Positions 1-12,864 are shown, numbered from the stretch's first letter. The stretch is 64,000 nt of DNA from Escherichia coli (GCF_050320075.1 NZ_CP190021.1), one strand, 5' to 3'. Numbers and translations: made by a program. Notes: generated from the letters alone by a model not told the origin.

Positions 1-2
1 TA

Positions 3-1952
3 ACGAAGTGTGAACCAGAAACCACCCGCAAAGCAAGCCGTAAATCTGTAAAAACGCAGGAAACTGTCCTGTCTGCCCTGCTGGCGCAGACGGAGGAAGT
101 GAGCGTGCCGCTGGCCTCGCTGATTAAATCACCGCTGAATGTGCGCACGGTGCCGTATTCTGCGGAGTCCGTCAGCGAACTGGCGGAGTCCATTAAGGGC
201 GTCGGACTGCTGCAGAATCTGGTCGTGCATACCCTGCCTGGTGACCGTTACGGTGTCGCCGCAGGTGGTCGCCGACTGGCTGCACTCAACATGCTGGCAG
301 AGCGTGGCATCATTCCGGCTGACTGGCCTGTACGCGTGAAGGTTATTCCGCAGGAGCTGGCGACGGCTGCATCAATGACTGAAAACGGTCATCGTCGGGA
401 TATGCACCCTGCCGAACAGATTGCCGGATTCCGTGCGATGGCGCAGGAAGGCAAAACGCCTGCACAAATCGGTGATTTGCTGGGCTATTCGCCCCGCCAC
501 GTTCAGCGAATGCTGAAACTGGCAGACCTTGCGCCTGTCATCCTCGATGCGCTGGCAGAAGACCGCATCACCACAGAGCACTGTCAGGCGCTGGCGCTGG
601 AGAACGACACCGCGCGTCAGGTGCAGGTGTTTGAAGCCGCCTGCCAGTCGGGATGGGGCGGTAAACCGGAAGTACAGACCATTCGTCGTCTGGTGACCGA
701 AAGTGAAGTGGCGGTGGCAGGTAACAGTAAATTCCGCTTCGTGGGGGCTGATGCTTTCTCACCTGACGAACTGCGTACTGATTTGTTCAGCGATGACGGG
801 GACGGTTATGTCGACCGCGTGGCGCTCGATGCTGCCCTGCTGGAAAAACTCCAGGCTGTCGCTGAACACCTTCGGGAAGCCGAAGGCTGGGAATGGTGCG
901 CCGGACGCATGGAGCCTGTCGGTGAGTGCCGTGAGGATGCCGGAACATACCGCTGTCTGCCGGAGCCGGAAGCGGTGCTGACGGAGGCAGAAGAAGAACG
1001 CCTGAACGAACTGATGACGCGTTACGACGCGCTGGAAAACCAGTGTGAGGAATCCGACCTGCTGGAAGCAGAAATGAAGCTGATGCGCTGCATGGCGAAG
1101 GTCAGGGCGTGGACGCCGGAGATGCGTGCCGGAAGTGGCGTGGTGGTGTCCTGGCGTTATGGAAACGTATGTGTCCAGCGTGGTGTGCAGTTGCGCAGTG
1201 AAGATGACGCGACTGATGACGCTGACCGCACGGAACAGGTGCAGGAGAAAGCGTCAGTGGAGGAAATCAGTCTGCCGTTGCTGACGAAAATGTCTTCCGA
1301 ACGCACGCTGGCAGTCCAGGCAGCACTGATGCAGCAACCGGACAAATCTCTGGCACTGCTGGCATGGACGCTCTGCCTGAATGTGTTTGACAGCGGAGCG
1401 TACAGTAAACCAGCACAAATCAGCCTGGAATGTAAACATTATTCGCTGACCAGCGATGCGCCGTCAGGGAAGGAAGGTGCCGCATTCCTGGCGCTGATGG
1501 CAGAAAAAGCCCGTCTTGCGGCCCTGTTACCGGAGGGATGGTCACGGGACATGACGACGTTCCTGTCACTCAGTCAGGAGGTGCTGTTATCCCTGCTCAG
1601 TTTCTGCACCGCATGCAGCCTTAACGGTGTCCAGACCCGCGAGTGTGGTCGCACGTCACGCAGTCCGCTTGACTCACTGGAGAGCGCCATCGGTTTTCAC
1701 ATGCGCGACTGGTGGCAGCCGACGAAAGCAAACTTCTTCGGACACCTGAAAAAGCCGCAGATTATCGCAGCCCTGAATGATGCCGGACTGTCCGGTGCCG
1801 CACGGGACGCAGAGAAGATGAAGAAAGGCGATGCCGCTGAACATGCAGAGTTCCATATGAAAGACAACCGCTGGGTGCCTGGCTGGATGTGTTCACCACG
1901 TCCACAGACGGATGCCACTGAACGCGCCGATAACCTGGCTGATGCCGCCTGA
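3..1952 (+). CDS. ParB/sulfiredoxin-like nuclease-domain leading-region protein (5' end off window)
   Basis: Frame 3 is open from the window edge, so the track start at 99 is only an internal GTG. ParB-box-like motifs LLQNLVVH and GGRRLAAL plus HTH-like YSPRHVQRMLKL. Sits just upstream of psiB as in F/IncI leading regions. Confidence 0.8.
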   Translation, partial: TKCEPETTRKASRKSVKTQETVLSALLAQTEEVSVPLASLIKSPLNVRTVPYSAESVSELAESIKGVGLLQNLVVHTLPGDRYGVAAGGRRLAALNMLAERGIIPADWPVRVKVIPQELATAASMTENGHRRDMHPAEQIAGFRAMAQEGKTPAQIGDLLGYSPRHVQRMLKLADLAPVILDALAEDRITTEHCQALALENDTARQVQVFEAACQSGWGGKPEVQTIRRLVTESEVAVAGNSKFRFVGADAFSPDELRTDLFSDDGDGYVDRVALDAALLEKLQAVAEHLREAEGWEWCAGRMEPVGECREDAGTYRCLPEPEAVLTEAEEERLNELMTRYDALENQCEESDLLEAEMKLMRCMAKVRAWTPEMRAGSGVVVSWRYGNVCVQRGVQLRSEDDATDDADRTEQVQEKASVEEISLPLLTKMSSERTLAVQAALMQQPDKSLALLAWTLCLNVFDSGAYSKPAQISLECKHYSLTSDAPSGKEGAAFLALMAEKARLAALLPEGWSRDMTTFLSLSQEVLLSLLSFCTACSLNGVQTRECGRTSRSPLDSLESAIGFHMRDWWQPTKANFFGHLKKPQIIAALNDAGLSGAARDAEKMKKGDAAEHAEFHMKDNRWVPGWMCSPRPQTDATERADNLADAA

Positions 1953-2003
1953 TGAACAACCACACCGCCCCGCCGGAGACGGGGCGGCAGAGGGAGAAAT
2001 ACG

Positions 2004-2441
2004 ATGATGAATACCGAACTGACACTGAATGCCCTGCAGTCCATGAATGCCCAGGAATATGAAGAAATCCGTGCTGCGGGAAGCGATATGCGCCGTAATC
2101 TCACTCACGAGGTGATGCGTAAAGTGGACGCACCGGCTAACTGGATGATGAACGGAGAGTATGGCAGCGAGTTCGGGGGCTTTTTCCCCGTCCAGGTTCG
2201 TTTCACGCCAGCCCACGAACGTTTCCACCTGGCATTATGTTCGCCGGGAGACGTCTCTCAGCTCTGGATGCTGGTTCTGGTGAATGGTGGTGGACAGCCT
2301 TTCGCCGTCGTTCAGGTGCAACATATCTTCACGCCTGCCGCGATCAGTCACACGCTGGCGCTTGCCGCGACACTGGATGCGCAGGGATACAGTGTTAACG
2401 ACATCATCCATATCCTGATGGCAGAAGGAGGTCAGGCATGA
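2004..2441 (+). CDS. psiB: PsiB, plasmid SOS-inhibition protein (RecA inhibitor)
   Basis: 145-aa ORF almost colinear with F PsiB as I recall it ([22 protein letters not shown] ... [37 protein letters not shown] ... [17 protein letters not shown]). GGAG RBS upstream. Confidence 0.93.
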
Positions 2442-3157
2442 GCGCACGTTCACGGGCACTGATCCCCCTCAGCGCAGAACAACAGGCCGCCATGCAGGCG
2501 GTGGCTGTCACAGAACAACGTCGTCGTCAGGGACGCACACTTTCAGCATGGCCTTATGCCACCGCTTTCTTTCGCTGCCTGAATGGCAGTCGCCGGATTT
2601 CGCTGACCGATCTCCGCTTTTTTGCCCCTGCGCTGACGAAGGAGGAATTTCATGGCAACCGTCTCCTGTGGCTGGCTGCCGTGGATAAACTGATTGAAAG
2701 TTTTGGGGAAGTCTGTGTTCTTCCCCTGCCATCCGATGCGGGGCACCGTCTGTTCCCGTCCGTGCCTTTTCGTGAAGGTGAGCGTCGTCGTCAGAAAACC
2801 ACGCTGACAGAGCAGAAATACAGCCGCCAGCGGGAACGTGAGGCAGAACGACGGGAACTGGAATACCAGACATGTTTTGCTCAGGCGCAGATTGACCTTG
2901 CGTTTCATACTCCCGCCACGGTCGGAAGCTGGTTGTCCCGCTGGTCTGGTGTTGTTGAGGAGCATGATCTGGAAACGATTTTCTGGGGGTGGTGCGGGCG
3001 TTTTCCATCACTGTCATCATTTGACCGGTTTTTCTGGCAGGAGGAACCACTCTGGCGGCTGATTTTTGAAGCCGGTGAGGCCGGTCGTGGTGCACCGGTA
3101 CAGGTACGTGCACTTGAGCAGTGGATGATCCCGAACAAGCTGGAGAACGTAATATGA
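2438..3157 (+). CDS. psiA: PsiA
   Basis: 239-aa ORF. Its start overlaps the psiB stop (ATGA) and it is in the canonical position after psiB. The length matches PsiA. Confidence 0.85.
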
Positions 3158-3750
3158 TGAAATCAGACGAAAAATACCAGGTTCCCGCGTGGATGCGACC
3201 TCTGTTGCCGTTGCTCTGCAACACCGGGGGGAACGATCCGGAAGAACTGCTGAATGATACAGAAACCACTGCCAGTGCGAATGTTGTCCGTTATGTACTG
3301 ATAGTTGCTGTGCGGTCGCAGGTTGATCTGCTGCAGCTTCTGTACAGGAAAGGGCTGTTGCGCACAGAGATACCAGGTGGCTTTTCACCGGAAGAAGCGC
3401 AGGCACTCCTGGATAATCTGGTGCGCAGCCATATCAGCAAGGCGCTGTCGGGCGAGCGAATGGCAGCCCGTGACAGAAATGCCGATCTGGCCTGGATTGG
3501 ACAGCAACTGGTCGATGACGCCTGGTTTGTCCGTGCCACACTGGAAGCGCATGGGATGAGCGTCGGAAATGAGAGTCCCCCTGCTCCGCCGGAGACAATG
3601 CCGGACATACAGACACGGGAACTGGTGATGTTGATCAAGCGACTGGCATCATCGCTGAAAGCGGTGAAACCGGACAGTTGTGTGGTGCGTGAAGCGCAGG
3701 ACTGGCTGCGCGACAGAAAACTTGTGGATATCACAGATATTCTCCGGTGA
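3154..3750 (+). CDS. conserved hypothetical leading-region protein (198 aa)
   Basis: ATG at 3154 overlaps the psiA stop (ATGA). GGAG lies 8 nt upstream. Clean ORF with no recognisable motif. Confidence 0.6.
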   Translation: MMKSDEKYQVPAWMRPLLPLLCNTGGNDPEELLNDTETTASANVVRYVLIVAVRSQVDLLQLLYRKGLLRTEIPGGFSPEEAQALLDNLVRSHISKALSGERMAARDRNADLAWIGQQLVDDAWFVRATLEAHGMSVGNESPPAPPETMPDIQTRELVMLIKRLASSLKAVKPDSCVVREAQDWLRDRKLVDITDILR

Positions 3751-3927
3751 ACCAGGCATGTATATTTTACGCAGGGACACGCCGATCATGATCGTTTCAT
3801 ATCAGGGGTGGTCTGGAGGTCATGCGGCGTGTCCTCTGCACTCGCCGGAATAAGGAAGTCGCCGGCGGCTCCGCTTTTACCCGGCCATGCGGGGCATGGC
3901 CTTGTGGGGTTTCAGCTCTGTGGCCTC

Positions 3928-4190
3928 AGCGTCGTGTGCGGGCTGTGCCGTGCCTCCATCTTAGCCGGGCTGGCAGGGATGCAAGGGTACGCTTCGCCGC
4001 TGCGGTCACCCGGTCCCTCCTTCCCGTCTGCCGTGATTTTCCGGTCGTTCGTCCGCTCAGGTTTCGCGGCCTCACCCTGCAACTCCCGTCAGCCGTGTGC
4101 GTCAGGCTGCGGCTTCCCTTGCGCCCCTGCATCCCCGCCTTATCGCCCGGCTTTTATGGAGGCACGGCACCGCCCGGTGTCGCAGAACAT
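3928..4190 (+). promoter_or_regulatory. Frpo/ssi-type long imperfect hairpin (candidate single-strand DNA promoter) upstream of ardA
   Basis: GTGCCGTGCCTCCAT (3945-3959) is the exact reverse complement of ATGGAGGCACGGCAC (4156-4170), and the flanking arms pair imperfectly. It ends about 20 nt before the ardA RBS. The GC-rich 'ORFs' here have no coding character. Confidence 0.65.
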
Positions 4191-4211
4191 GTGACTATGG
4201 AGGATTCGGGA

Positions 4212-4712
4212 ATGTCTGTTGTTGCACCTGCTGTATACGTTGGAACCTGGCACAAATACAACTGTGGAAGCATCGCCGGACGCTGGTTTGACCTGACCAC
4301 GTTTGATGATGAGCGCGACTTTTTCGCCGCCTGCCGTGCTCTTCACCAGGATGAAGCCGATCCTGAACTGATGTTTCAGGATTATGAGGGATTCCCGGGG
4401 AATATGGCCTCTGAATGCCATATCAACTGGGCCTGGGTTGAAGGCTTCCGCCTGGCACGGGATGAAGGCTGCGAAGAGGCTTATCGTCTCTGGGTGGAGG
4501 ATACCGGTGAGACGGATTTTGACACCTTCCGCGATGCCTGGTGGGGCGAGGCTGACAGTGAGGAGGCTTTTGCGGTTGAGTTCGCCAGTGATACCGGCCT
4601 GCTGGCTGACGTGCCGGAGACGGTGGCGCTCTATTTTGACTATGAGGCGTATGCGCGGGATTTATTCCTGGACTCCTTCACCTTTATTGACGGTCATGTG
4701 TTCCGTCGGTGA
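4212..4712 (+). CDS. ardA: ArdA anti-restriction protein (type I R-M inhibitor, DNA mimic)
   Basis: 166 aa starting [34 protein letters not shown], which matches ColIb-P9 ArdA as I recall it. Very acidic C-terminal half. GGAGGA RBS. Confidence 0.93.
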
Positions 4713-5080
4713 TTTACTCCCCCGCTCCGGCGGGGGTATGGCCTGCCAGGCCGCCGGAAAACCCTGGCAGGCTTACGCCTGCCTGAAATGCAGGAGGGCC
4801 GCGCCTGCGGCGCTGCCCTTCCTGCCCGTCATGGTGTGAGGCATTTTTCTGTTATGTCGTTTCTGTTGTTCTGATTTCCGGAGGCGGGGACACCTTCGGC
4901 TCCCGGCTGCCTGGCGGCATCCGGTCGTCAGGCCCGACTCCGACAGGCAGCTGCTGGCGCACCCGCCAGTCTCCGCCGAACCCGCTGGCGCGGTTTCGGG
5001 CTGCCGCTACGGTCCGATGTCTGAAAAACCAGGCTTGCAGCGACCGTTCCGGTCGCGCCGCCCCTGTCGCGCCGGAAACG

Positions 5081-5420
5081 GCGCTCCCTGCACACCTGAC
5101 GGTGTGTAAGGCCACTGCGCCTGATGGCGCAGTCAACCCTTCCGCCGCCACCCCTGCGGCCTGTTTCCCGCTGTGGACTTTCCGGGGGCTGGAGTAACCA
5201 CATCCCGTTTCAGCAGTCCAGGGGAAGATATACCGTCCACAAAATTTTTAGCCATAAACCCGGCAAAAAATTTTGCGTCCGCCCCCGGACAGCTGCCCCG
5301 TGACGTGGTGACGGACGCCCCATCGGAAAGGTCCACTGCGGGGAGAAACCCCGAAGAAGTGGACGGCAGAAGGGGCTTTCGCCCCTCCGGGGAGCAACCG
5401 GTCGGCCCGGCGACCTGATT
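5081..5420 (+). repeat. Frpo/ssi-like element, copy A (about 320 bp, homologous to 7959-8300)
   Basis: Blocks shared with copy B: GCGCTCCCTGCACACCT.ACGGTGTGTAAGGCCACTGCGCCTGATGGCGCAG ... GGACTTTCCGGGGG ... CCACATCCCGTTTCAG ... CCCCGGACA.CTGCCCCGTGACGTGGTGA ... CGGAAAGGTCCACTGCGGGGA. Internal long-range complementarity (GGACTTTCCG / CGGAAAGGTCC; CAAAATTTTT / AAAAATTTTG at the apex). Ends at a strong RBS. Confidence 0.7.
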
Positions 5421-5440
5421 CAGCAGAAGGAGACGTTTTC

Positions 5441-5875
5441 ATGACAGTCAGCAGCACGATTTCCGTTTTTTGCCGCGACGGGGTGTTCCGTACCGTTTAC
5501 TGCCACCTGCACGGGGAGCCGACCTGGAACGGTCGCATCCTGCATACCCACTATGCCACCGGTCAGCAGGCCGAAGCCCTGGTTGAACACGGTGATATCC
5601 GTTGCCTCGGTCCCCGTTGCGACAAACCCGCCGGGCATACGCTTCAGAACCCGGTGGACGGTGTGACGGCTTATTACGGACGTGACAGTGGTTTCCGGAT
5701 GGACAGTGAGGCGCGTGAGTACCGTTCTTTCAGGGAGGCTATTGCCACTGAAAGCACTGAAGAGGTGCGCTTCCATTATGTGTTCATCGACGGCTACTGG
5801 AAGGTGATGTACCGCACGCCGGAAGGCTGGAAGATGAAAGCGCTCGCGCTGGCACTGCGTCGCTGTCCGAAATGA
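5441..5875 (+). CDS. hypothetical leading-region protein (144 aa)
   Basis: AAGGAG RBS 8 nt upstream. Lies immediately downstream of Frpo-like copy A. No motif recognised. Confidence 0.65.
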   Translation: MTVSSTISVFCRDGVFRTVYCHLHGEPTWNGRILHTHYATGQQAEALVEHGDIRCLGPRCDKPAGHTLQNPVDGVTAYYGRDSGFRMDSEAREYRSFREAIATESTEEVRFHYVFIDGYWKVMYRTPEGWKMKALALALRRCPK

Positions 5876-5968
5876 AAAAAAGGCAGGGCGATAAACCCTG
5901 CCTCTCTCCGCCGGCGCTTCCCCGCCAGGAAGTCCGGCATCTCAATCACTATCTATGGAGATTATGCC

Positions 5969-6235
5969 ATGAGACCATCAATTATCTTCGCAACCGCCGA
6001 GTATGTAAAGCGTCTGCGTGAAGAGTGCCTGCGGGAGAATAAACCCCTGCACCGCCATACCCGCTTCAGACGTCAGGAGCTGGCACAGGATGAGATTAAC
6101 CCGGACGTCCTGGCGATGAGCGGCCATATCGCCAGACGCTGCAGTGAGCAGAAGCGGGTGCGTATCCCCGCTATGAAAGTCAGCGAATGGGGCCACCTGC
6201 TCCGCGCGCTTGAAATTGAGCGGGTCTGCCACTGA
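5969..6235 (+). CDS. hypothetical protein (88 aa)
   Basis: GGAG RBS and a basic protein. No family recognised. Confidence 0.45.
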   Translation: MRPSIIFATAEYVKRLREECLRENKPLHRHTRFRRQELAQDEINPDVLAMSGHIARRCSEQKRVRIPAMKVSEWGHLLRALEIERVCH

Positions 6236-6299
6236 TTAACCCTTGCCGTCTGCCTGTGCAGGCGGCAGGATACGTTCAGACATCTCACCAGGAGGAACC

Positions 6300-7238
6300 G
6301 TGAGTCAGAAGAAAACCACCACGACGCCCACGCCGCATGATGCCGCGTTCCGGTCGTTCCTGGCGAATCCCGACGTCGCCAGAGATTTTCTGGAACTGCA
6401 TCTTCCGGCGGAGTACCGGCAGTTGTGCGACCTGTCCACGCTGAAGCTGGAACCCGCCACCTTTGTTGAGCCGGACCTGCATCAGTACGCCAGCGATATC
6501 CTCTGGAGTGTGAAAACCACCGGGGGTGAAGATGGCTATGTTTATACGCTCATCGAGCACCAGAGCACCGAAAATCTGTACATGCCTTTCCGCATGTTAC
6601 GTTACAGTGTGGCGGCGATGCAGAGACATCTGGAGCAGCACAAAACGTTGCCACTGGTGATTCCTGTACTGTTCTATCATGGTGAGCGCAGCCCGTACCC
6701 GTACAGCATGAACTGGCTGGACTGTTTTGAGAATCCGGCACTTGCGGCTAAAATATACACAAAGCCGTTTCCGCTGGTTGATATCACTGTCGTTGATGAC
6801 AATGAAATCATGAACCATCGCCGGATGGCCGCACTGACGCTGCTGATGAAGCATATCCGCCATCGTGACATGATGGAGCTGCTGGACAAACTCCCGCAGG
6901 TCATGGTGGAAATTTCAGACGAGCAGGTGCGTGTTCTGATTCATTACATCGTTAACGCAGGGGACTCTGTATCACCGGAATTTATGCGGGCGCTGGCTGA
7001 GCGTCTGCCGCAGCATGAGGATAAACTGATGACTATCGCAGAACGTCTTGAGCAAAAAGGTCGCCAGGAGGGCAGGATGGAAGGACGCATGGAAGGACGC
7101 ATGGAAGGACGCATGGAAGGAGCGCTTGAAAAAGCCCTGGCTATTGCGTGCCAGCTTCAGAAAATGGGGATGACGCCGGAGCAGATTAAGCAGGCTACCG
7201 GACTTTCCGATGACGAACTGAAGAAAATCACTCACTGA
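6300..7238 (+). CDS. Rpn family recombination-promoting nuclease (YhgA-like, PD-(D/E)XK); full-length 'RpnL'
   Basis: GTG at 6300 follows GGAGGA. N-terminal signature PHDAAFRSFL...DFL..HLP ... SDILWSV ... Y.L.EHQS ... MPFRMLRY ... PLVIPVLFYHG is typical of RpnA-E/YhgA-like proteins. Confidence 0.85.
   Translation: MSQKKTTTTPTPHDAAFRSFLANPDVARDFLELHLPAEYRQLCDLSTLKLEPATFVEPDLHQYASDILWSVKTTGGEDGYVYTLIEHQSTENLYMPFRMLRYSVAAMQRHLEQHKTLPLVIPVLFYHGERSPYPYSMNWLDCFENPALAAKIYTKPFPLVDITVVDDNEIMNHRRMAALTLLMKHIRHRDMMELLDKLPQVMVEISDEQVRVLIHYIVNAGDSVSPEFMRALAERLPQHEDKLMTIAERLEQKGRQEGRMEGRMEGRMEGRMEGALEKALAIACQLQKMGMTPEQIKQATGLSDDELKKITH
7029..7238 (+). CDS. predicted intragenic small protein (RpnS-type antitoxin, 69 aa) in frame within rpn
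   Basis: In-frame ATG at 7029 with GAGGA 8 nt upstream. It starts exactly where the free-standing paralog (7300-7458) starts (MTIAERL.QKG). It encompasses the EGRM repeat. Confidence 0.45.
   Translation: MTIAERLEQKGRQEGRMEGRMEGRMEGRMEGALEKALAIACQLQKMGMTPEQIKQATGLSDDELKKITH
7068..7124 (+). repeat. 12-nt tandem repeat (GAAGGACGCATG, about 4.7 units) encoding (EGRM)n
   Basis: Read directly: gagggcaggatg gaaggacgcatg gaaggacgcatg gaaggacgcatg gaaggagcg. In frame inside rpn. Confidence 0.95.
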
Positions 7239-7250
7239 GTAAACATCACA

Positions 7251-7275
7251 GCCCGGCAAAATGCCGGGCTTTTTT
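7251..7275 (+). terminator. intrinsic terminator after rpn
   Basis: GCCCGGC-aaaat-GCCGGGC followed by TTTTTT. Confidence 0.8.
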
Positions 7276-7299
7276 GTCAGCAGGAGCAGAGCAAATAGC

Positions 7300-7458
7300 A
7301 TGACGATTGCAGAACGTCTTATTCAAAAAGGCGCACTTGAAGTGGCGCGGGAAATAGCCTGCCGGCTGCGGGATATGGGCTGGACGCCGGAACGGATTCA
7401 GGAGGCAACCGGACTTTCCGGTGAAGAACTGAAAAAGCTGTTTCCTGATGAGCAGTAG
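7300..7458 (+). CDS. stand-alone RpnS-like small protein (52 aa), paralog of the Rpn C-terminal domain without the EGRM repeat
   Basis: MTIAERLIQKGALEVAREIACRLRDMGWTPERIQEATGLSGEELKKL aligns with Rpn residues MTIAERLEQKG-(EGRM)n-ALEKALAIACQLQKMGMTPEQIKQATGLSDDELKKI. GGAG lies 13 nt upstream, which is suboptimal. Confidence 0.55.
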   Translation: MTIAERLIQKGALEVAREIACRLRDMGWTPERIQEATGLSGEELKKLFPDEQ

Positions 7459-7488
7459 CCTGGCATTCAGCCAGGCTGTGAATCACGC

Positions 7489-7740
7489 TCACACATCCTC
7501 TGCCGTTTCCCCCAGTTCATTTTCCAGTCGCCTGATGATATCTGCCTTACGCATCCCCTGCATGTGAGGCAGCAGGTCACGGACTGAAAGTGCCTGGGTG
7601 GTCCTCCAGACGGTGACGTCCACCTGTTCCGCATTTTCCCAGGCGTGCCATGTTCTCTGCGTCACGCCAAATTCTCTGGCCGCTTTTTCGCGTGACCAGA
7701 GCATGCTTTTTCGCCAGATTCGCAGTTCCCAGCCGGTCAT
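7489..7740 (-). CDS. small XRE/Cro-like HTH regulator (83 aa), the only minus-strand gene between psiB and the Frpo-B copy
   Basis: HTH-like segment REKAAREFGVTQRTWHAWE. Twin palindromes lie directly upstream. Confidence 0.65.
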   Translation of the reverse strand: MTGWELRIWRKSMLWSREKAAREFGVTQRTWHAWENAEQVDVTVWRTTQALSVRDLLPHMQGMRKADIIRRLENELGETAEDV

Positions 7741-7754
7741 AAAACACCTTTGAA

Positions 7755-7842
7755 AAAGTGAAAAAACTTCACTTTATTTTATCATCACAATTGCCAAATC
7801 AGCGCGATAAATAAGTGTAAAAAAGTGAAGAAATTTCACTTT
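7755..7842. promoter_or_regulatory. two 21-bp palindromic operator-like sites AAAGTGAA-N5-TTCACTTT
   Basis: 7755-7775 (aaagtgaa aaaac ttcacttt) and 7822-7842 (aaagtgaa gaaat ttcacttt). Centres are 67 bp apart, in the AT-rich gap between the HTH gene and Frpo-like copy B. Confidence 0.7.
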
Positions 7843-7958
7843 TTTTGCTTGTAAATGTCGTGCGGTTTTCTCTGTTTTCACCTGTGCGGGAGTGGTGTGC
7901 CAGTGACCACCACATGCCATTGTTGTGCCGTCGTTTTTCTTCAGTCGCGCCGTATGCG

Positions 7959-8300
7959 GCGCTCCCTGCACACCTTACGGTGTGTAAGGCCACTGCGCCT
8001 GATGGCGCAGCTGTCTCTGCCTGTCTGCCGCCGCACTGCGGCCTGTTCTCCGCAGACGGACTTTCCGGGGGTACATACATGACCACATCCCGTTTCAGTC
8101 GTCCAGGGGGGAGATGTACCAGCCACAAAACTTTTTGCCGCAGGCGTCAAAAACTTTTGCGTCTGCCCCCGGACAACTGCCCCGTGACGTGGTGAGCGTC
8201 CCCCGTCGGAAAGGTCCACTGCGGGGAAATCCCCGAAGACCCGGACGGCAGAAGGAGCTTCGCTCCTCCGGGAAATGACCTGGCTGTCCCGGCAGTCGTG
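7959..8300 (+). repeat. Frpo/ssi-like element, copy B
   Basis: Homologous to 5081-5420 (see copy A). Ends at the AGGAG RBS of the next gene. Confidence 0.7.
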
Positions 8301-8319
8301 ACGATGAGGAGACAATGTG

Positions 8320-9168
8320 ATGAATCAGACTTTACCCACTGCTGACCTGAATACTGCCGGCACGACAGATGTTATTCCGTCTGTGGCTATCGACCGCATC
8401 ATCGCGCAGCGTAACGAAGGTATTGCACTGTTCATGCAGGCGATGGAATGCCTGGCGACAGCGCGCAAGATTCTGCTCGATGCGTCAGGTGATATTTTTC
8501 TTTACGGGTTTGAAGACTGCGTGACTGATTCCGTTCGTCGCATAGATAAACCGGAAGAAGCGAAAAGGAATATCACCCGTCTTGCCGACCGGAAAATCTG
8601 GGACCGCCTGATGACAGATACGGGCATGTACACCTTCATGAGTTCATGCCAGCGTGATGAGTGGAACAGCCAGCTGATGAGCGACACCTGTCCTGAAATC
8701 ACCCTGGACAATGTACTGGCAACATTCCGCCATCTGAATGCCTGCAAGATGCAGACATTTGAACAGGGACTGATTGATGTCTACCGGAAATTGTCATGGG
8801 ATTACAGAACCAATAATCCCTGCCGTCTGGGTAAGAAAATCATTATTGAAAACCTGCTGTACCGCTGGAGTAACGGGCGTGTGACGCTGGACTGCAGCGG
8901 ACGGGAGGCACTGGATGACCTGGTACGTCCGTTTTATCTGCTGGAGGGGCGCAACGTTCCTGACTTCAGGAACAGTATCGGGGCGCAGTATGGTGAATTT
9001 CTCGGGAACGGCGACAATGTCGGTAAGCTGTTAGAAGGGGAATATTTTACGGTGCGTGGCTACCAGAAAGGGACCGTACACATTGTCTTTAAGCGTTCTG
9101 ACCTTGTTGAAAAACTGAATGATATTATTGCACGGCATTATCCAGGTGCATTGCCGCCACGAGTCTGA
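8320..9168 (+). CDS. conserved hypothetical leading-region protein (282 aa; possibly DUF4942-like, from memory only)
   Basis: AGGAG at 8306-8310. A GTG at 8317 or ATG at 8320 could be the start. Immediately downstream of Frpo-like copy B and followed by a terminator. Confidence 0.65.
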   Translation: MNQTLPTADLNTAGTTDVIPSVAIDRIIAQRNEGIALFMQAMECLATARKILLDASGDIFLYGFEDCVTDSVRRIDKPEEAKRNITRLADRKIWDRLMTDTGMYTFMSSCQRDEWNSQLMSDTCPEITLDNVLATFRHLNACKMQTFEQGLIDVYRKLSWDYRTNNPCRLGKKIIIENLLYRWSNGRVTLDCSGREALDDLVRPFYLLEGRNVPDFRNSIGAQYGEFLGNGDNVGKLLEGEYFTVRGYQKGTVHIVFKRSDLVEKLNDIIARHYPGALPPRV

Positions 9169-9179
9169 TTAAACAGAAA

Positions 9180-9210
9180 AGCCCTGGTATTTATGCCGGG
9201 GCTTTTTTTT
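9180..9210 (+). terminator. intrinsic terminator
   Basis: AGCCCTGG-tatttatg-CCGGGGCT (one mismatch) followed by T8. Confidence 0.75.
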
Positions 9211-9253
9211 CTGTAATCATCATAATCTCAGAACACGATGTGACATTGTCACA

Positions 9254-9595
9254 TCAATTGTTGTTCATATCGATGCCATCTTTCCTGCCTGAATCTGTCT
9301 TTTTAGGTGCTGTTTTAGAGGAAGAACGGCGGGATGGTTTTTTCGATTCTGCTTCCCGAATAATGTCACGAAGTGCCTTCTCTCCTACTTCATACCCTGC
9401 ATTTTTGAGCGTGTCACGAACATCTGCCAGTGTATAACCCTTTGTCCTTACCAGGACAATAATGTCATCACGAATGGCATCAAGAAAATCACGCAATGTT
9501 TTCCGTTGAGCGGTGAGATCTGGCAATTCCGATAAAGCAGCTTTTGCCAGCTGGATGTCATCATCTGAGTAAAATTTTTTAGAAGCCATTGGCAC
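9254..9595 (-). CDS. hypothetical protein with Lys/Ser-rich basic tail (113 aa), adjacent to oriT
   Basis: Clean ORF with GGAGAG upstream of the GTG start. The C-terminus KKPSRRSSSKTAPKKTDSGRK suggests nucleic-acid binding. Function unknown. Confidence 0.55.
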   Translation of the reverse strand: MPMASKKFYSDDDIQLAKAALSELPDLTAQRKTLRDFLDAIRDDIIVLVRTKGYTLADVRDTLKNAGYEVGEKALRDIIREAESKKPSRRSSSKTAPKKTDSGRKDGIDMNNN

Positions 9596-9738
9596 TTTCT
9601 CTCCGTTTCATGTTGAAGTCTGATTTTATCATCAAAAACTGACTCCTGGCAGGGCTGCGCCCTGCCTCTGCCGTCTGCATAAGACTATGATGCACAAAAA
9701 TAACAGGCTATAATGGCCTGAAAAACGGGACAGGATGT

Positions 9739-9800
9739 GCAATTGTATAACCGCGCACGCGCGATTATACAATTGCCTCCTGGTCAGGGCTTCGCCCCGA
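9739..9800. other. oriT: oriT core (17-bp inverted repeat plus adjacent nick region)
   Basis: GCAATTGTATAACCGCG (9739-9755) versus CGCGATTATACAATTGC (9760-9776) is a 17-bp inverted repeat with one mismatch, followed by CTCCTGGTCAGGGC directly upstream of nikA. This matches the published description of R64 oriT as I recall it. The exact nick position is not determinable here. Confidence 0.75.
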
Positions 9801-9821
9801 CACCCCAGTAAGGAGCTGACC

Positions 9822-10154
9822 GTGAGTGATAAACGTCAAAGAAGTGGTAGTGAAAGACGGCAAAAGACGATCCTGAGAGCGGTCCGGTTCTCACCGGATG
9901 AGGATGAAACTATCTGTAAGAATGCTGAAGATTCCGGACTTACTGTATCTGCTTACATCCGAAATGCAGCACTGAATAAGCGAATTAACTCCCGTACAGA
10001 TGATGCTTTTCTGAAGGAGTTAATGAGACTGGGAAGGATGCAGAAGCATCTGTTTGTTCAGGGAAAAAGAACCGGTGACAAGGAATACGCAGAAGTGCTT
10101 GTTGCCATAACCGAACTTACAAATACATTGCGTAAACAGTTAATGGAAGGTTGA
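9822..10154 (+). CDS. nikA: NikA relaxosome accessory protein (RHH, 110 aa)
   Basis: GTG start after TAAGGAG. 110 aa equals the R64 NikA length. Position is between oriT and nikB. Confidence 0.9.
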   Translation: MSDKRQRSGSERRQKTILRAVRFSPDEDETICKNAEDSGLTVSAYIRNAALNKRINSRTDDAFLKELMRLGRMQKHLFVQGKRTGDKEYAEVLVAITELTNTLRKQLMEG

Positions 10155-10164
10155 GGATTCTCCG

Positions 10165-12864
10165 GTGAATGCAGTCATTCCGAAAAAGAGAAGGGACGGC
10201 AAGTCTTCGTTCGAAGACCTGGTATCCTACGTCTCTGTCCGGGATGACATGACCGATGAGGAACTGGATTTATCTTCTTCTTCGCAGGCTGAACAACCGC
10301 ACCGAAGCCGTTTCAGTCGCCTTGTTGATTATGCGACACGTCTTCGAAATGAGTCATTCGTGGCGCTGGTTGATGTCATGAAGGACGGCTGCGAATGGGT
10401 CAACTTTTATGGTGTCACCTGCTTTCATAACTGTACTTCTCTTGAAACTGCCGCTGCAGATATGGAGTACATTGCCCGGCAGGCACACTATGCAAAAGAT
10501 GACACTGACCCTGTTTTTCACTACATCCTTTCCTGGCAGTCACATGAAAGCCCGCGTCCGGAACAGATTTATGACAGTGTACGTCATACGCTGAAATCAC
10601 TCGGCCTTGCCGACCATCAGTATGTCTCTGCCGTGCATACTGATACAGATAATCTGCACGTCCATGTGGCTGTTAACCGGGTACACCCTGAAACGGGTTA
10701 TCTGAACCGGTTATCATGGAGTCAGGAAAAACTCAGTCGTGCCTGCCGTGAGCTTGAACTGAAGCATGGTTTTGCTCCGGATAACGGTTGCTGGGTCCAT
10801 GCGCCGGGAAATCGTATCGTTCGCAAAACTGCCGTTGAACGTGATCGCCAGAACGCCTGGACACGCGGAAAAAAACAAACTTTTCGTGAGTATGTTGCGC
10901 AGACAGCGGTCGCTGGTTTACGCAGTGAACCTGTACATGACTGGTTATCCCTGCATCGTCGTCTTGCGGAAGATGGTCTGTACCTGTCTCAGATGGACGG
11001 AAAATTTCTGGTGATGGATGGCTGGGATCGCAACAGGGAAGGTGTACAGCTTGACTCGTTTGGTCCCTCCTGGTGTGCAGAAAAACTCATGAAAAAAATG
11101 GGTGACTACACGCCAGTGCCAAAAGACATTTTCAGCCAGGTGGAAGCACCAGGACGCTATAATCCGGACTTCATTGCAGCTGATGTTCGCCCGGAAAAAA
11201 TCGCTGAAACAGAAAGTCTGCAGCAGTATGCCTGTCGTCATCTTGGAGAACGTCTGCCGGAAATGGCACGGGAAGGACGGCTGGAAAACTGCCTGGCTAT
11301 TCACCGCACACTGGCTGAAGCGGGATTATGGATGCGTGTTCAGCATGGTCACCTGGTTATCTGTGACGGTTATGATCATAACCAGACTCCCGTTCGTGCT
11401 GACAGCGTATGGTCACTGCTGACGCTCGACAATGTGAATCAACTCGATGGTGGCTGGCAGCCTGTACCAACAGATATTTTCCGCCAGGTTACGCCAACAG
11501 AACGCTTCCGTGGTCGTCGTATGGAGAGCTGTCCTGCGACCGATAAAGAATGGCACCGTATGCGTACAGGTACGGGGCCGCAGGGGGCTATCAAACGCGA
11601 ACTGTTTTCTGACAAAGAAAGTCTGTGGGGATACAGCATCAGCCATTGTAGCCCTCAGATTGAAGAAATGATCACACAGGGTGAGTTTACCTGGCAGCGT
11701 TGTCATGAGTTGTTTGCACAACAGGGACTGATGCTACAGAAACAACATCACGGGCTTGTTGTCGTTGATGCTTTTAATCATGAGCAAACGCCGGTGAAAG
11801 CCAGCAGCATTCATCCTGATCTGACACTGGGGCGTGCGGAGCCACAGGCCGGACCTTTTGTGAGTGCTCCAGCAGATTTGTTTGACAGGGTGCAACCTGA
11901 AAATCGCTATAACCCGGAGCTGGCTGTCAGTGACAGGTACGGGGTCAGCAGTAAACGTGACCCAATGCTGCGCCGGCAGCGACGTGAAGCCAGGGCTGAG
12001 GCCCGTGCTGACCTGCGTGCCCGCTATCTGGCATGGCGTGAACAATGGCGTAAACCGGATCTGCGTTATGGGGAACGTTGTCGGGAAATTCATCAGGCAT
12101 GCCGTCTGCGGAAGTCACACATTCGTGCGCAGTACGATGATCCGGCATTACGTAAGCTGCATTATCACATTGCAGAAGTTCAGCGAATGCAGGCATTGAT
12201 CAGGCTGAAAGAAGACATCAGGGATGAGCGACAGAAACTTATTGCTGACGGGAAATGGTATCCACCCTCTTACCGTCAGTGGGTCGAAATTCAGGCTGCT
12301 CAGGGAGACAGGGCTGCTGTATCGCAGTTGAGAGGCTGGGATTATCGCGATCGCCGTAAAGACAAGTCACGCACAACGACGACAGACCGCTGTGTCGTGC
12401 TTTGTGAACCGGGCGGAACGCCGGTATACGGTAATACCGGTGATCTCGAGGCCCGTCTGCAGAAGAACGGGAGTGTTCGTTTCCGTGACCGTCGGACGGG
12501 AGAGTTTGTCTGTACGGATTATGGTGACAGAGTTGTTTTCCGTAATCACCATGACCGCAATGCGCTGGCAGATAAACTGGATTTGATTGCACCGGTATTA
12601 TTCGGGCGTGATCCACGCATGGGGTTTGAACCAGAAGGAAACGACAAACAATTTAACCAGGTCTTTGCTGAAATGGTTGCCTGGCATAATGTGACAGGCC
12701 GTACCGGTCACGAAGACTACAGGATTACGCGACCGGACGTGGATCATCACCGTGAAGGAAGTGAACGCTACTACCGCGATTATATCGCGGCGAACAGCAA
12801 CGATGACGCATCACTGCCTCCGCCGGAGCAGGATAAACGCTGGGAACCGCCTTCTCCAGGTTAA
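10165..12864 (+). CDS. nikB: NikB relaxase (MOBP-type, 899 aa)
   Basis: 899 aa equals R64 NikB. The relaxase histidine motif region is HTDTDNLHVHVAVNRV. Confidence 0.92.
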   Translation: MNAVIPKKRRDGKSSFEDLVSYVSVRDDMTDEELDLSSSSQAEQPHRSRFSRLVDYATRLRNESFVALVDVMKDGCEWVNFYGVTCFHNCTSLETAAADMEYIARQAHYAKDDTDPVFHYILSWQSHESPRPEQIYDSVRHTLKSLGLADHQYVSAVHTDTDNLHVHVAVNRVHPETGYLNRLSWSQEKLSRACRELELKHGFAPDNGCWVHAPGNRIVRKTAVERDRQNAWTRGKKQTFREYVAQTAVAGLRSEPVHDWLSLHRRLAEDGLYLSQMDGKFLVMDGWDRNREGVQLDSFGPSWCAEKLMKKMGDYTPVPKDIFSQVEAPGRYNPDFIAADVRPEKIAETESLQQYACRHLGERLPEMAREGRLENCLAIHRTLAEAGLWMRVQHGHLVICDGYDHNQTPVRADSVWSLLTLDNVNQLDGGWQPVPTDIFRQVTPTERFRGRRMESCPATDKEWHRMRTGTGPQGAIKRELFSDKESLWGYSISHCSPQIEEMITQGEFTWQRCHELFAQQGLMLQKQHHGLVVVDAFNHEQTPVKASSIHPDLTLGRAEPQAGPFVSAPADLFDRVQPENRYNPELAVSDRYGVSSKRDPMLRRQRREARAEARADLRARYLAWREQWRKPDLRYGERCREIHQACRLRKSHIRAQYDDPALRKLHYHIAEVQRMQALIRLKEDIRDERQKLIADGKWYPPSYRQWVEIQAAQGDRAAVSQLRGWDYRDRRKDKSRTTTTDRCVVLCEPGGTPVYGNTGDLEARLQKNGSVRFRDRRTGEFVCTDYGDRVVFRNHHDRNALADKLDLIAPVLFGRDPRMGFEPEGNDKQFNQVFAEMVAWHNVTGRTGHEDYRITRPDVDHHREGSERYYRDYIAANSNDDASLPPPEQDKRWEPPSPG

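Follow-up and report, generated by a model that had tools for sequence, protein, structure and literature searches.

A separate RpnS-like gene with a variable repeat lies behind rpn in the leading region of an IncI1-type plasmid

Results

The rpn Locus and Its Surroundings

We analyzed a 64,000-nt stretch of Escherichia coli DNA (the window), with a focus on a small open reading frame, hereafter the orphan, that follows an rpn nuclease gene. The genes of the region run in the order ssb, psiB, psiA, ardA, ygcA (144 aa), ygdA (88 aa), ygdB (the rpn gene), the orphan, ygeA, ygfB, yggA, nikA, and nikB, where ygeA is an HTH gene on the opposite strand, ygfB encodes a DUF4942 protein, and the orphan is left unnamed in R64-style annotation. 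This synteny, with ssb, psiB, psiA, and ardA upstream and nikA and nikB downstream, confirms the leading-region location that an earlier reading of the DNA alone (the sequence-only reading) had given for the orphan, here in a conjugative plasmid of the IncI1 type. The orphan has both the location and the orientation of a leading-region gene and shares its strand with ssb, psiB, ardA, and rpn. Over positions 6200-7800 the window shows 100% identity to pFORC44_1 and at least 29 further IncI plasmids, whose hosts are E. coli, Salmonella, and E. albertii; PLSDB contains 2041 records with a match to this segment, 98 of them at 99% identity or more. An Rfam search returned nothing within positions 1-12000 of the window, and our literature search found no link between Rpn and the leading region. 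The features of the locus and of its relatives on other plasmids are collected in Table 1.

Table 1. Features of the rpn locus in the window and module architectures at sampled loci (L numbers) on related plasmids
Feature	Position	Strand	Basis or remark
rpn (ygdB in R64-style annotation), full-length RpnL, R-type C-domain with 5 repeats	6300..7238	+	PF04754, E 1.6e-78
Internal rpn start (inferred): SD GAGGA 7017-7021, 7-nt spacer, ATG 7029 (M244)	7017..7031	+	Read from sequence
Intragenic RpnS (presumed), R-type module, 69 aa	7029..7238	+	Analogy with Zhong 2023
Repeat tract RQEG(RMEG)4, 12-nt/4-aa units, helix 1 of R module	7062..7121	+	Sequence and BLASTP
Intrinsic terminator of rpn	7250..7275	+	9-bp stem with 7 G-C, 3-nt loop, T6
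SD-like leader CAGCAGGAGCAGAG	7282..7291	+	Read from sequence; candidate signal
Orphan: free-standing F-type RpnS-like gene (rpnSs type), zero-repeat allele	7300..7458	+	Homology, fold, constraint, frame conservation
Downstream arm of 109-nt direct repeat	7328..7436	+	Marks old partial duplication
Empty repeat-insertion site, codons G11-A12	7330..7335	+	Codon-level and protein allele comparison
Architecture N-R + F	Window and most sampled loci		
Architecture N-Q + F	L004, L009-14, L036		
Architecture N-Q or N-Q' + free R + free F	L022; L034, L035		L034 and L035 are IncK2/Z plasmids
Architecture N-F3 fusion, nothing downstream	L008		
Three-module arrays	L022 1310-1995; L034 1404-2102; L035 704-1438		Some IncI and IncK2/Z plasmids
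N-F3 fusion	L008 814-1737 (pCL046-1, NZ_OR237797.1) and 15 other PLSDB records		Rpn nuclease domain joined to F module with 3 repeats, no separate orphan

The rpn gene starts with GTG at 6300 and encodes 312 aa. Its product also matches the NCBIfam RpnA model (E 4e-95) and TIGR01784 (E 7e-53), shares 153 identical positions over 316 columns with K-12 RpnA, including the conserved SD.LWSVKT and LIEHQST motifs, and is annotated as an Rpn family nuclease in the identical plasmids. RpnS proteins made from internal starts are the antitoxins of RpnL nucleases (Zhong 2023, PMC10400941). In the window gene M244 occupies the codon position of the iTIS in K-12 RpnA and RpnE, and by this analogy we infer that the ATG at 7029 is used as an internal start; the intragenic RpnS that it would yield is presumably the cognate antitoxin of this RpnL. 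The repeat of this R-type module varies from 1 to 5 copies in related plasmids. A sigma-70-like match inside rpn (6727-6754, plus strand; TTGAGA, 16 nt, TAAAAT; 10/12) lies ~275 nt 5' of the internal start, and an RpnS-only transcript would be possible if it is real.

Two related elements of 330-440 nt flank this region, one at ~4990-5435 (5' of the ygcA-ygdA-rpn cluster) and one at ~7870-8310 (5' of the DUF4942 gene). Direct repeats connect the two (5066-5132 with 7944-8010, 94%; 5261-5320 with 8145-8204, 87%), and each forms a single long, imperfect hairpin when folded as ssDNA (-128.7 and -115.7 kcal/mol; z -7.6 and -7.8). We regard them as candidate ssDNA (ssi/Frpo-like) promoters resembling those mapped in the IncI1 plasmid pESBL, where, according to an RNA-seq study, ssDNA promoters drive the leading-region operons; should the element at 4990-5435 be active, entry could induce rpn and, if transcription reads through, also the orphan. 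Of the six induced operons that the pESBL study names in its text, none is described as rpn. Several long spurious ORFs and a RefSeq "hypothetical protein" (7774-7971, minus strand) overlap the hairpin elements. On the other side of the orphan, the convergent ygeA encodes an 83-aa XRE-type HTH protein (7489-7740, minus strand; HTH_31, E 7e-5) that ends 30 nt from the orphan stop, with a small hairpin, CCTGGCattcaGCCAGG, in between. The gene is present in all sampled architectures, and a regulatory link with the rpn locus is conceivable.

The Orphan Encodes a Second Copy of the Rpn C-Terminal Domain

The orphan runs from the ATG at 7300 to a TAG at 7456-7458 and encodes 52 aa (product MTIAERLIQKGALEVAREIACRLRDMGWTPERIQEATGLSGEELKKLFPDEQ); its ATG lies 61 nt after the rpn stop (7238), both genes being on the plus strand, and a Pfam scan gave no match to the PF04754 nuclease domain. 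Residues 1-47 align with Rpn 244-310 (33/67 identical; BLASTP E 3e-15), with a single 20-residue gap placed exactly at RQEG(RMEG)4 and ~70% identity to the C-domain of the RpnL in cis outside the gap. The sequence-only reading had placed a 52-aa copy of this domain at 7300-7458, and both the coordinates and the homology are borne out. At the DNA level, 7117-7225 and 7328-7436 form a 109-nt direct repeat with 75% identity.

Profile searches point the same way. The orphan matches the last 42 positions of TIGR01784 (232-273 of 273; E 1.7e-4) and positions 244-288 of the NCBIfam RpnA model, and PF27070 (HTH_Rpn_C) tags are precomputed on many of its alleles, so that it shows both the homology to the C-terminal ~50-70 residues of PF04754 proteins and the MTIAERL start that characterize an RpnS domain. 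Up to E 1, neither the orphan nor YpaA, the internal RpnS, or three further alleles of the orphan gene matched DUF4351 (PF14261), and a Pfam scan of the orphan and other alleles with a library lacking PF27070 returned only sub-threshold HTH-like matches; the relevant Pfam family is PF27070 rather than PF14261. The PADLOC models cover neither Rpn nor the orphan, and tblastn against 50,697 phage records gave no match to a homologue.

Bit scores for the orphan fall from the R module (53.9) through the Q module described below (38.5), RpnD (35.4), RpnA (31.6), RpnB (28.9), YpaA (26.9), and RpnC (25.8) to RpnE (25.0), and identity to the C-domains of K-12 RpnA-E is 33-48%. On these scores, which are pairwise and not a tree, the orphan appears to group with the RpnS of its own upstream gene and not with other Rpn paralogues.

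An AF2 model (mean pLDDT 78) places helices at residues 3-25, 30-37, and 41-47, and its best Foldseek match in the PDB is RpnA-S (7TH0; probability 1.00, TM 0.75/0.83, rmsd 1.2 Å over 44 columns). The orphan is thus predicted to form a compact three-helix bundle with a long first helix. RpnA-S, a dimeric three-helix bundle (PMC10400941), has no repeat insertion itself, and the repeat-less form is therefore a normal RpnS architecture. A PDB search by sequence also found 7TH0, over orphan residues 1-45; its top matches (DotG, designed repeat proteins, and PPR) were set aside as repeat-driven artefacts, 7TH0 being the meaningful one.

Expression Signals Are the Weak Point

The stem of the rpn terminator spans 7250-7270 and its T-run reaches 7275, leaving 24 nt before the orphan ATG; the hairpin is kept in 10 of 10 distinct intergenic variants. 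In the leader that follows, AGGAG (7282-7286) lies 13 nt and a weaker AGAG (7288-7291) 8 nt before the ATG, and the same SD-like leader is present 5' of free modules in other plasmids. The SD spacing of 13 nt that the sequence-only reading gave is accurate. In a promoter scan nothing credible emerged for the orphan, the sole sigma-70-like match (7274-7301) overlapping the ATG. Expression is the weak point of the orphan's story: the terminator 24 nt upstream, the weak or poorly spaced SD, and the outcome of the promoter scan all count against the spare inhibitor that we propose below.

Annotated starts differ among records (52, 65, 73 aa, and more), and some records begin the orphan at the rpn stop (73-89 aa). 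We rejected the 65-aa RefSeq reading (ATG 7261), whose ATG falls within the loop of the terminator hairpin and whose extension is not conserved as protein. The true start is likely the conserved MTIAERL start at 7300.

The Orphan Is Conserved as a Protein-Coding Gene

By tblastn, the orphan is in one frame at 80% coverage or more in 2026 of 2031 matching plasmid records (99.8%), which span ~25% DNA divergence at the locus, and the 52-aa sequence is found unchanged on at least 1000 contigs in a protein collection. The 52 nonrepeat codons hold 14 synonymous and 8 nonsynonymous variants over 38 and 118 sites, respectively, and the pooled pN/pS is 0.20, compared with 0.33 for the neighboring HTH gene (11 distinct nucleotide alleles from 28 loci, without phylogenetic correction). 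The ATG is kept, all indels among the sampled alleles are in frame and mostly multiples of 12 nt, and there is no remnant of the nuclease N-domain between rpn and the orphan. The marks of a pseudogene, that is, frameshift, stop, start loss, relaxed constraint, or an N-domain remnant, are thus absent. Judged from these alleles, the orphan is a maintained protein-coding gene under purifying selection and not a remnant. The survey of other plasmids that the sequence-only reading had called for therefore reveals no pseudogene decay, and its suggestion of a decayed second rpn fails: no N-domain was left behind, the repeating unit is C-module, terminator, and leader, and the frame and pN/pS (~0.2) are those of an intact gene.

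Five rare alleles (P0001, P0002, P0004, P0005, and P0013) carry in-frame tandem duplications away from the usual repeat site (REIACRL two to three times, 21 nt; ALEVAREM twice, 24 nt), which suggests that the whole small gene is prone to slippage.

The Orphan Has Its Own Variable Repeat

The sequence-only reading described the orphan as lacking the repeat, which is correct for the window allele and incorrect for the gene. In related IncI, IncK, and IncF plasmids the same gene, which we call the F module, has its own 12-nt/4-aa GFxx repeat in 0 to 6 copies; the units (GGT TTY RAN VAA) are inserted after residue 11, at the site that is empty in the window, and include the variants FEKG, FDEG, FKEG, FKQG, and others. 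Across plasmids the gene therefore shows the hypervariable 4-aa tract typical of RpnS domains, where it begins 8-20 residues after the initiating Met, and the window allele has no repeat, like RpnA-S. The zero-repeat form is found in roughly 385 PLSDB records and one or more units in the rest, an approximate split from tblastn identity bands. Two sampled zero-repeat alleles share synonymous markers (ATT CAA .. GGC), which indicates one origin. The number of F repeats is independent of that in the upstream Rpn: with R-type genes we find R5+F0, R1+F0, R5+F1, R4+F1, R1+F1, R1+F2, R1+F3, R2+F3, and R3+F4, and with Q-type genes Q3+F4 and Q5+F1.

C-Terminal Modules Are Free, Arrayed, or Fused to the Nuclease

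Three diverged types of C-module occur at the locus: Q and Q' (IQQG repeats), R (RQEG/RMEG, as in the window Rpn), and F (the orphan). Writing N for the nuclease domain and a number for the repeats, the window has the architecture N-R5 with a free F0. Some plasmids hold all three (N-Q5+R1+F3, N-Q'6+R1+F3, and N-Q'9+R1+F3), and in these arrays the same terminator hairpin and CAGCAGGAGCAGAG leader follow every module, which identifies the duplicated unit as module plus terminator. The free R module is identical to the Rpn C-domain of other plasmids and is found on 588 contigs as a 53-aa call and on 718 contigs as a 74-aa call. Every sampled plasmid that has a separate F module shows this module in the same arrangement, downstream of rpn and on its strand.

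A further arrangement joins the nuclease domain directly to F3. By junction-specific DNA searches and exact protein look-ups we counted this N-F3 fusion in 16 PLSDB records, mostly Shigella sonnei and E. coli plasmids, all with one identical junction, and on 579 contigs; the junction lies within a 21-nt start common to all modules, ATGAC.AT.GCAGAACGTCTT. The nuclease domain is 98-100% identical among the N-R, N-Q', and N-F forms. In gapped alignment, that of the N-Q form diverges from about residue 180 on. The Q-type rpn of L004 (646-1587), compared with window positions 6300-7238, is 95-100% identical up to about nt 540 (residue 180) and 47-76% identical thereafter; this drop indicates that the Q-type rpn is a mosaic whose exchanged segment starts well upstream of the internal start. 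The overall pattern of modules fits a history in which the rpn 3' end was long ago duplicated in tandem, the copies diverged, and short-homology deletions followed.

Discussion

A Probable Spare Inhibitor Kept by Selection

We consider it probable that the orphan is an rpnSs-type gene that arose by duplication of the rpn 3' end and is kept by selection as a spare RpnS-type inhibitor. This agrees best with the option of a spare or orphan antitoxin in the sequence-only reading, and the gene is a second, free-standing copy of the RpnS-like C-terminal domain. In such a history the rpn 3' end with its terminator would have been tandemly duplicated into a separate paralogue of the C-terminal three-helix domain (RpnS, HTH_Rpn_C), which is now one of the Q, R, and F modules at a locus that IncI, IncK, and some IncF plasmids conserve in their leading regions. 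What the protein does can be projected from published Rpn systems, where the 4-aa repeats lie in helix 1, vary among strains, and also occur in RpnSs proteins, where RpnC-S blocks RpnC-L solely at equal repeat number (shown for RpnC only), and where RpnA-S does not block RpnB-L (PMC10400941). On the model of Zhong 2023 the orphan protein would dimerize through its long helix 1 and would bind and inhibit only an RpnL of the same module type and repeat number. Its targets in trans would then be RpnL variants of the F type, for example the nucleases of the N-F3 fusions on related plasmids, and its DNA could also be a substrate for replacement of the nuclease C-domain by short-homology deletion.

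The target is probably not the neighboring nuclease, given the ~70% identity to the C-domain of the RpnL in cis and the 20-residue difference in helix 1. Since that RpnL is R-type with five repeats and the orphan F-type with none, the cognate antitoxin would be the intragenic RpnS, and the orphan a spare. Free F3 alleles, by comparison, share 97% identity with the N-F3 nuclease in its C-domain, which makes trans-inhibition of F-type nucleases plausible for those alleles. For the zero-repeat allele, PLSDB (72,556 plasmids) contains no RpnL with a zero-repeat F-type C-domain, and this allele is accordingly without a known target. The 33-48% identity to the C-domains of K-12 RpnA-E argues against action on the chromosomal Rpn proteins.

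Alternative Explanations

The sequence-only reading had also raised an anti-defense decoy, in which early synthesis of the free module in the recipient would neutralize resident chromosomal or plasmid Rpn and protect the incoming plasmid. Its appeal lies in the setting: the orphan occupies the leading region, on the strand that also carries ssb, psiB, ardA, and rpn; the ygcA-ygdA-rpn-orphan cluster is preceded by a hairpin-forming element similar to that 5' of the DUF4942 gene; ssDNA promoters drive the pESBL leading-region operons; and orphan antitoxins are reported to be over-represented in leading regions (PMC11541004). The N-F3 nuclease, on 579 contigs, would offer the free F3 alleles a 97% identical RpnL C-domain as a target. 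We nevertheless think the decoy unlikely. The zero-repeat allele has no repeat-matched RpnL in PLSDB, its identity to the K-12 C-domains is just 33-48%, RpnA-S fails on RpnB-L, and a one-repeat difference abolishes inhibition (PMC10400941); a strong terminator separates rpn from the orphan, the six operons named as induced in the pESBL study include none described as rpn, and no homologue is found in 50,697 phage records.

A related possibility, to which we give the same low standing, is that the locus works as a modular immunity array. One or two free RpnS modules of other types stand beside one Rpn nuclease, with repeat numbers that drift independently; made on entry, the free modules might neutralize the Rpn of related resident plasmids, and short-homology deletions might occasionally re-arm the nuclease with another module. 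If this were true, repeat-length matching would be a recognition code in plasmid-plasmid conflict.

That the orphan is a nonfunctional leftover, a partial tandem duplication hitch-hiking on a successful backbone without meaningful expression, seems to us also unlikely. It would account for the terminator immediately upstream and the poor SD spacing, for a zero-repeat allele that is beyond expansion by slippage and has no known partner, for the pseudogene status of ypaA in RefSeq, and for the annotators' uncertainty that the varying starts (52, 65, 73 aa, and more) betray. It does not account for a pN/pS of 0.20, for a retained ATG with in-frame indels, mostly in multiples of 12 nt, among the sampled alleles, or for a frame intact in 99.8% of 2031 plasmids across ~25% DNA divergence, and YpaA protein is detectable in K-12 (PMC10400941).

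The module could instead serve as DNA, a reservoir of alternative C-domains in which recombination at the module 5' ends swaps the C-domain together with the intragenic antitoxin. The N-F3 crossover does fall within the shared 21-nt start, a near-identical N-domain (98-100% in N-R, N-Q', and N-F) underlies differing architectures, and loss of rpnSs by fusion has been noted elsewhere (PMC10400941). We find this improbable, however: the events seen are deletions and hence irreversible, one junction in all 16 PLSDB fusions suggests a single event, and silent DNA would need no start codon, leader, or protein-level constraint in ~2000 plasmids. Finally, it is very improbable that F0 forms mixed oligomers with the adjacent R-type RpnL/RpnS C-domain and so tunes nuclease release, as the near-identical start of helix 1 (MTIAERL.QKG), the 70% identity outside the gap, and the additional regulation suggested by widely differing L:S ratios (PMC10400941) might have led one to propose, since a single extra repeat abolishes cross-inhibition between RpnC-S and RpnC-L (PMC10400941) where the difference here is five, and across plasmids the F repeat count varies independently of the R count.

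Recognition of the orphan as an rpnSs-type module bears on the purpose of free RpnS copies, a question left by the 2023 paper (PMC10400941). The orphan is carried by ~2000 sequenced resistance and virulence plasmids of enterobacteria (IncI1, IncK, IncB/O-like, and some IncF), where it is annotated only as "hypothetical" and with inconsistent start codons; assignment to the rpnSs type corrects both. The main added value lies in the three-module architecture and the repeat-number series, which make the repeat-matching rule directly testable: three module types with 0 to 6 repeats, free and fused, with a nearly identical nuclease domain, form a natural series for it.

Comparison with Known Systems

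The orphan does not reveal a new kind of system. The sequence-only reading knew of no described stand-alone RpnS gene, and such genes have been published: the internal product of rpnE matches an independent gene, ypaA (Meydan 2019, 10.1101/520783), since renamed rpnE-Ss with its protein detected, rpnC-Ss has been described as well, and RpnS encoded as a separate gene is stated for both chromosomes and plasmids (PMC10400941). These precedents make the orphan a plasmid member of a described kind, and it has the layout of an rpnSs gene: its own ORF just 3' of rpn, on the same strand, without a nuclease domain.

In K-12, a gap of 12 nt separates ypaA from rpnE upstream; YpaA and the RpnE C-domain share 78.6% identity, YpaA having one extra 4-aa repeat. 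The SD of ypaA is a copy of the rpnE internal SD, and RefSeq flags the gene as a pseudogene. Like ypaA and rpnC-Ss, the orphan is a small separate gene right after rpn, on the same strand, that encodes the RpnS-like domain alone, is closest to its own upstream module, has strain-variable repeats, and can be lost when the module becomes fused to the nuclease; loss of rpnSs through deletion or N-domain fusion is also reported for the known genes (PMC10400941). As in YpaA, which has one repeat more than RpnE, its repeat number is unlike that of the upstream copy (0 against 5). Unlike ypaA, it sits on a plasmid, within a conjugative leading region, stands behind a terminator and a 61-nt spacer where the K-12 gap is 12 nt with a duplicated iTIS SD, is more diverged from its upstream copy (70% against 79%, ungapped), and is part of an array with up to three module types.

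With the intragenic RpnS proteins (RpnA-S 7TH0, RpnB-S, RpnC-S, and RpnP2-S) the orphan shares the domain, the MTIAERL start, and the three-helix fold, as known here from sequence and model; it is encoded by its own gene instead of an internal start, and so is under no obligation to coevolve with a nuclease. The stand-alone DUF4351 (PF14261) proteins named as separate RpnS genes in some species (PMC10400941) represent the same concept, but neither the orphan, YpaA, nor the three F alleles match PF14261. Orphan antitoxins over-represented in plasmid leading regions, proposed to act on competing elements (Samuel 2024, PMC11541004), are likewise antitoxin-type genes without a matched toxin and in early-gene orientation; here the neighboring gene does encode a toxin of the family, albeit a mismatched one, and Rpn is not mentioned in that paper. 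The IncI shufflon (PilV) offers an analogy only: it too places alternative C-terminal segments in tandem 3' of a gene, on the same type of plasmid, whereas the rpn locus has no recombinase and no inverted repeats, changes through deletions via short direct homology, and has free modules with start codons of their own.
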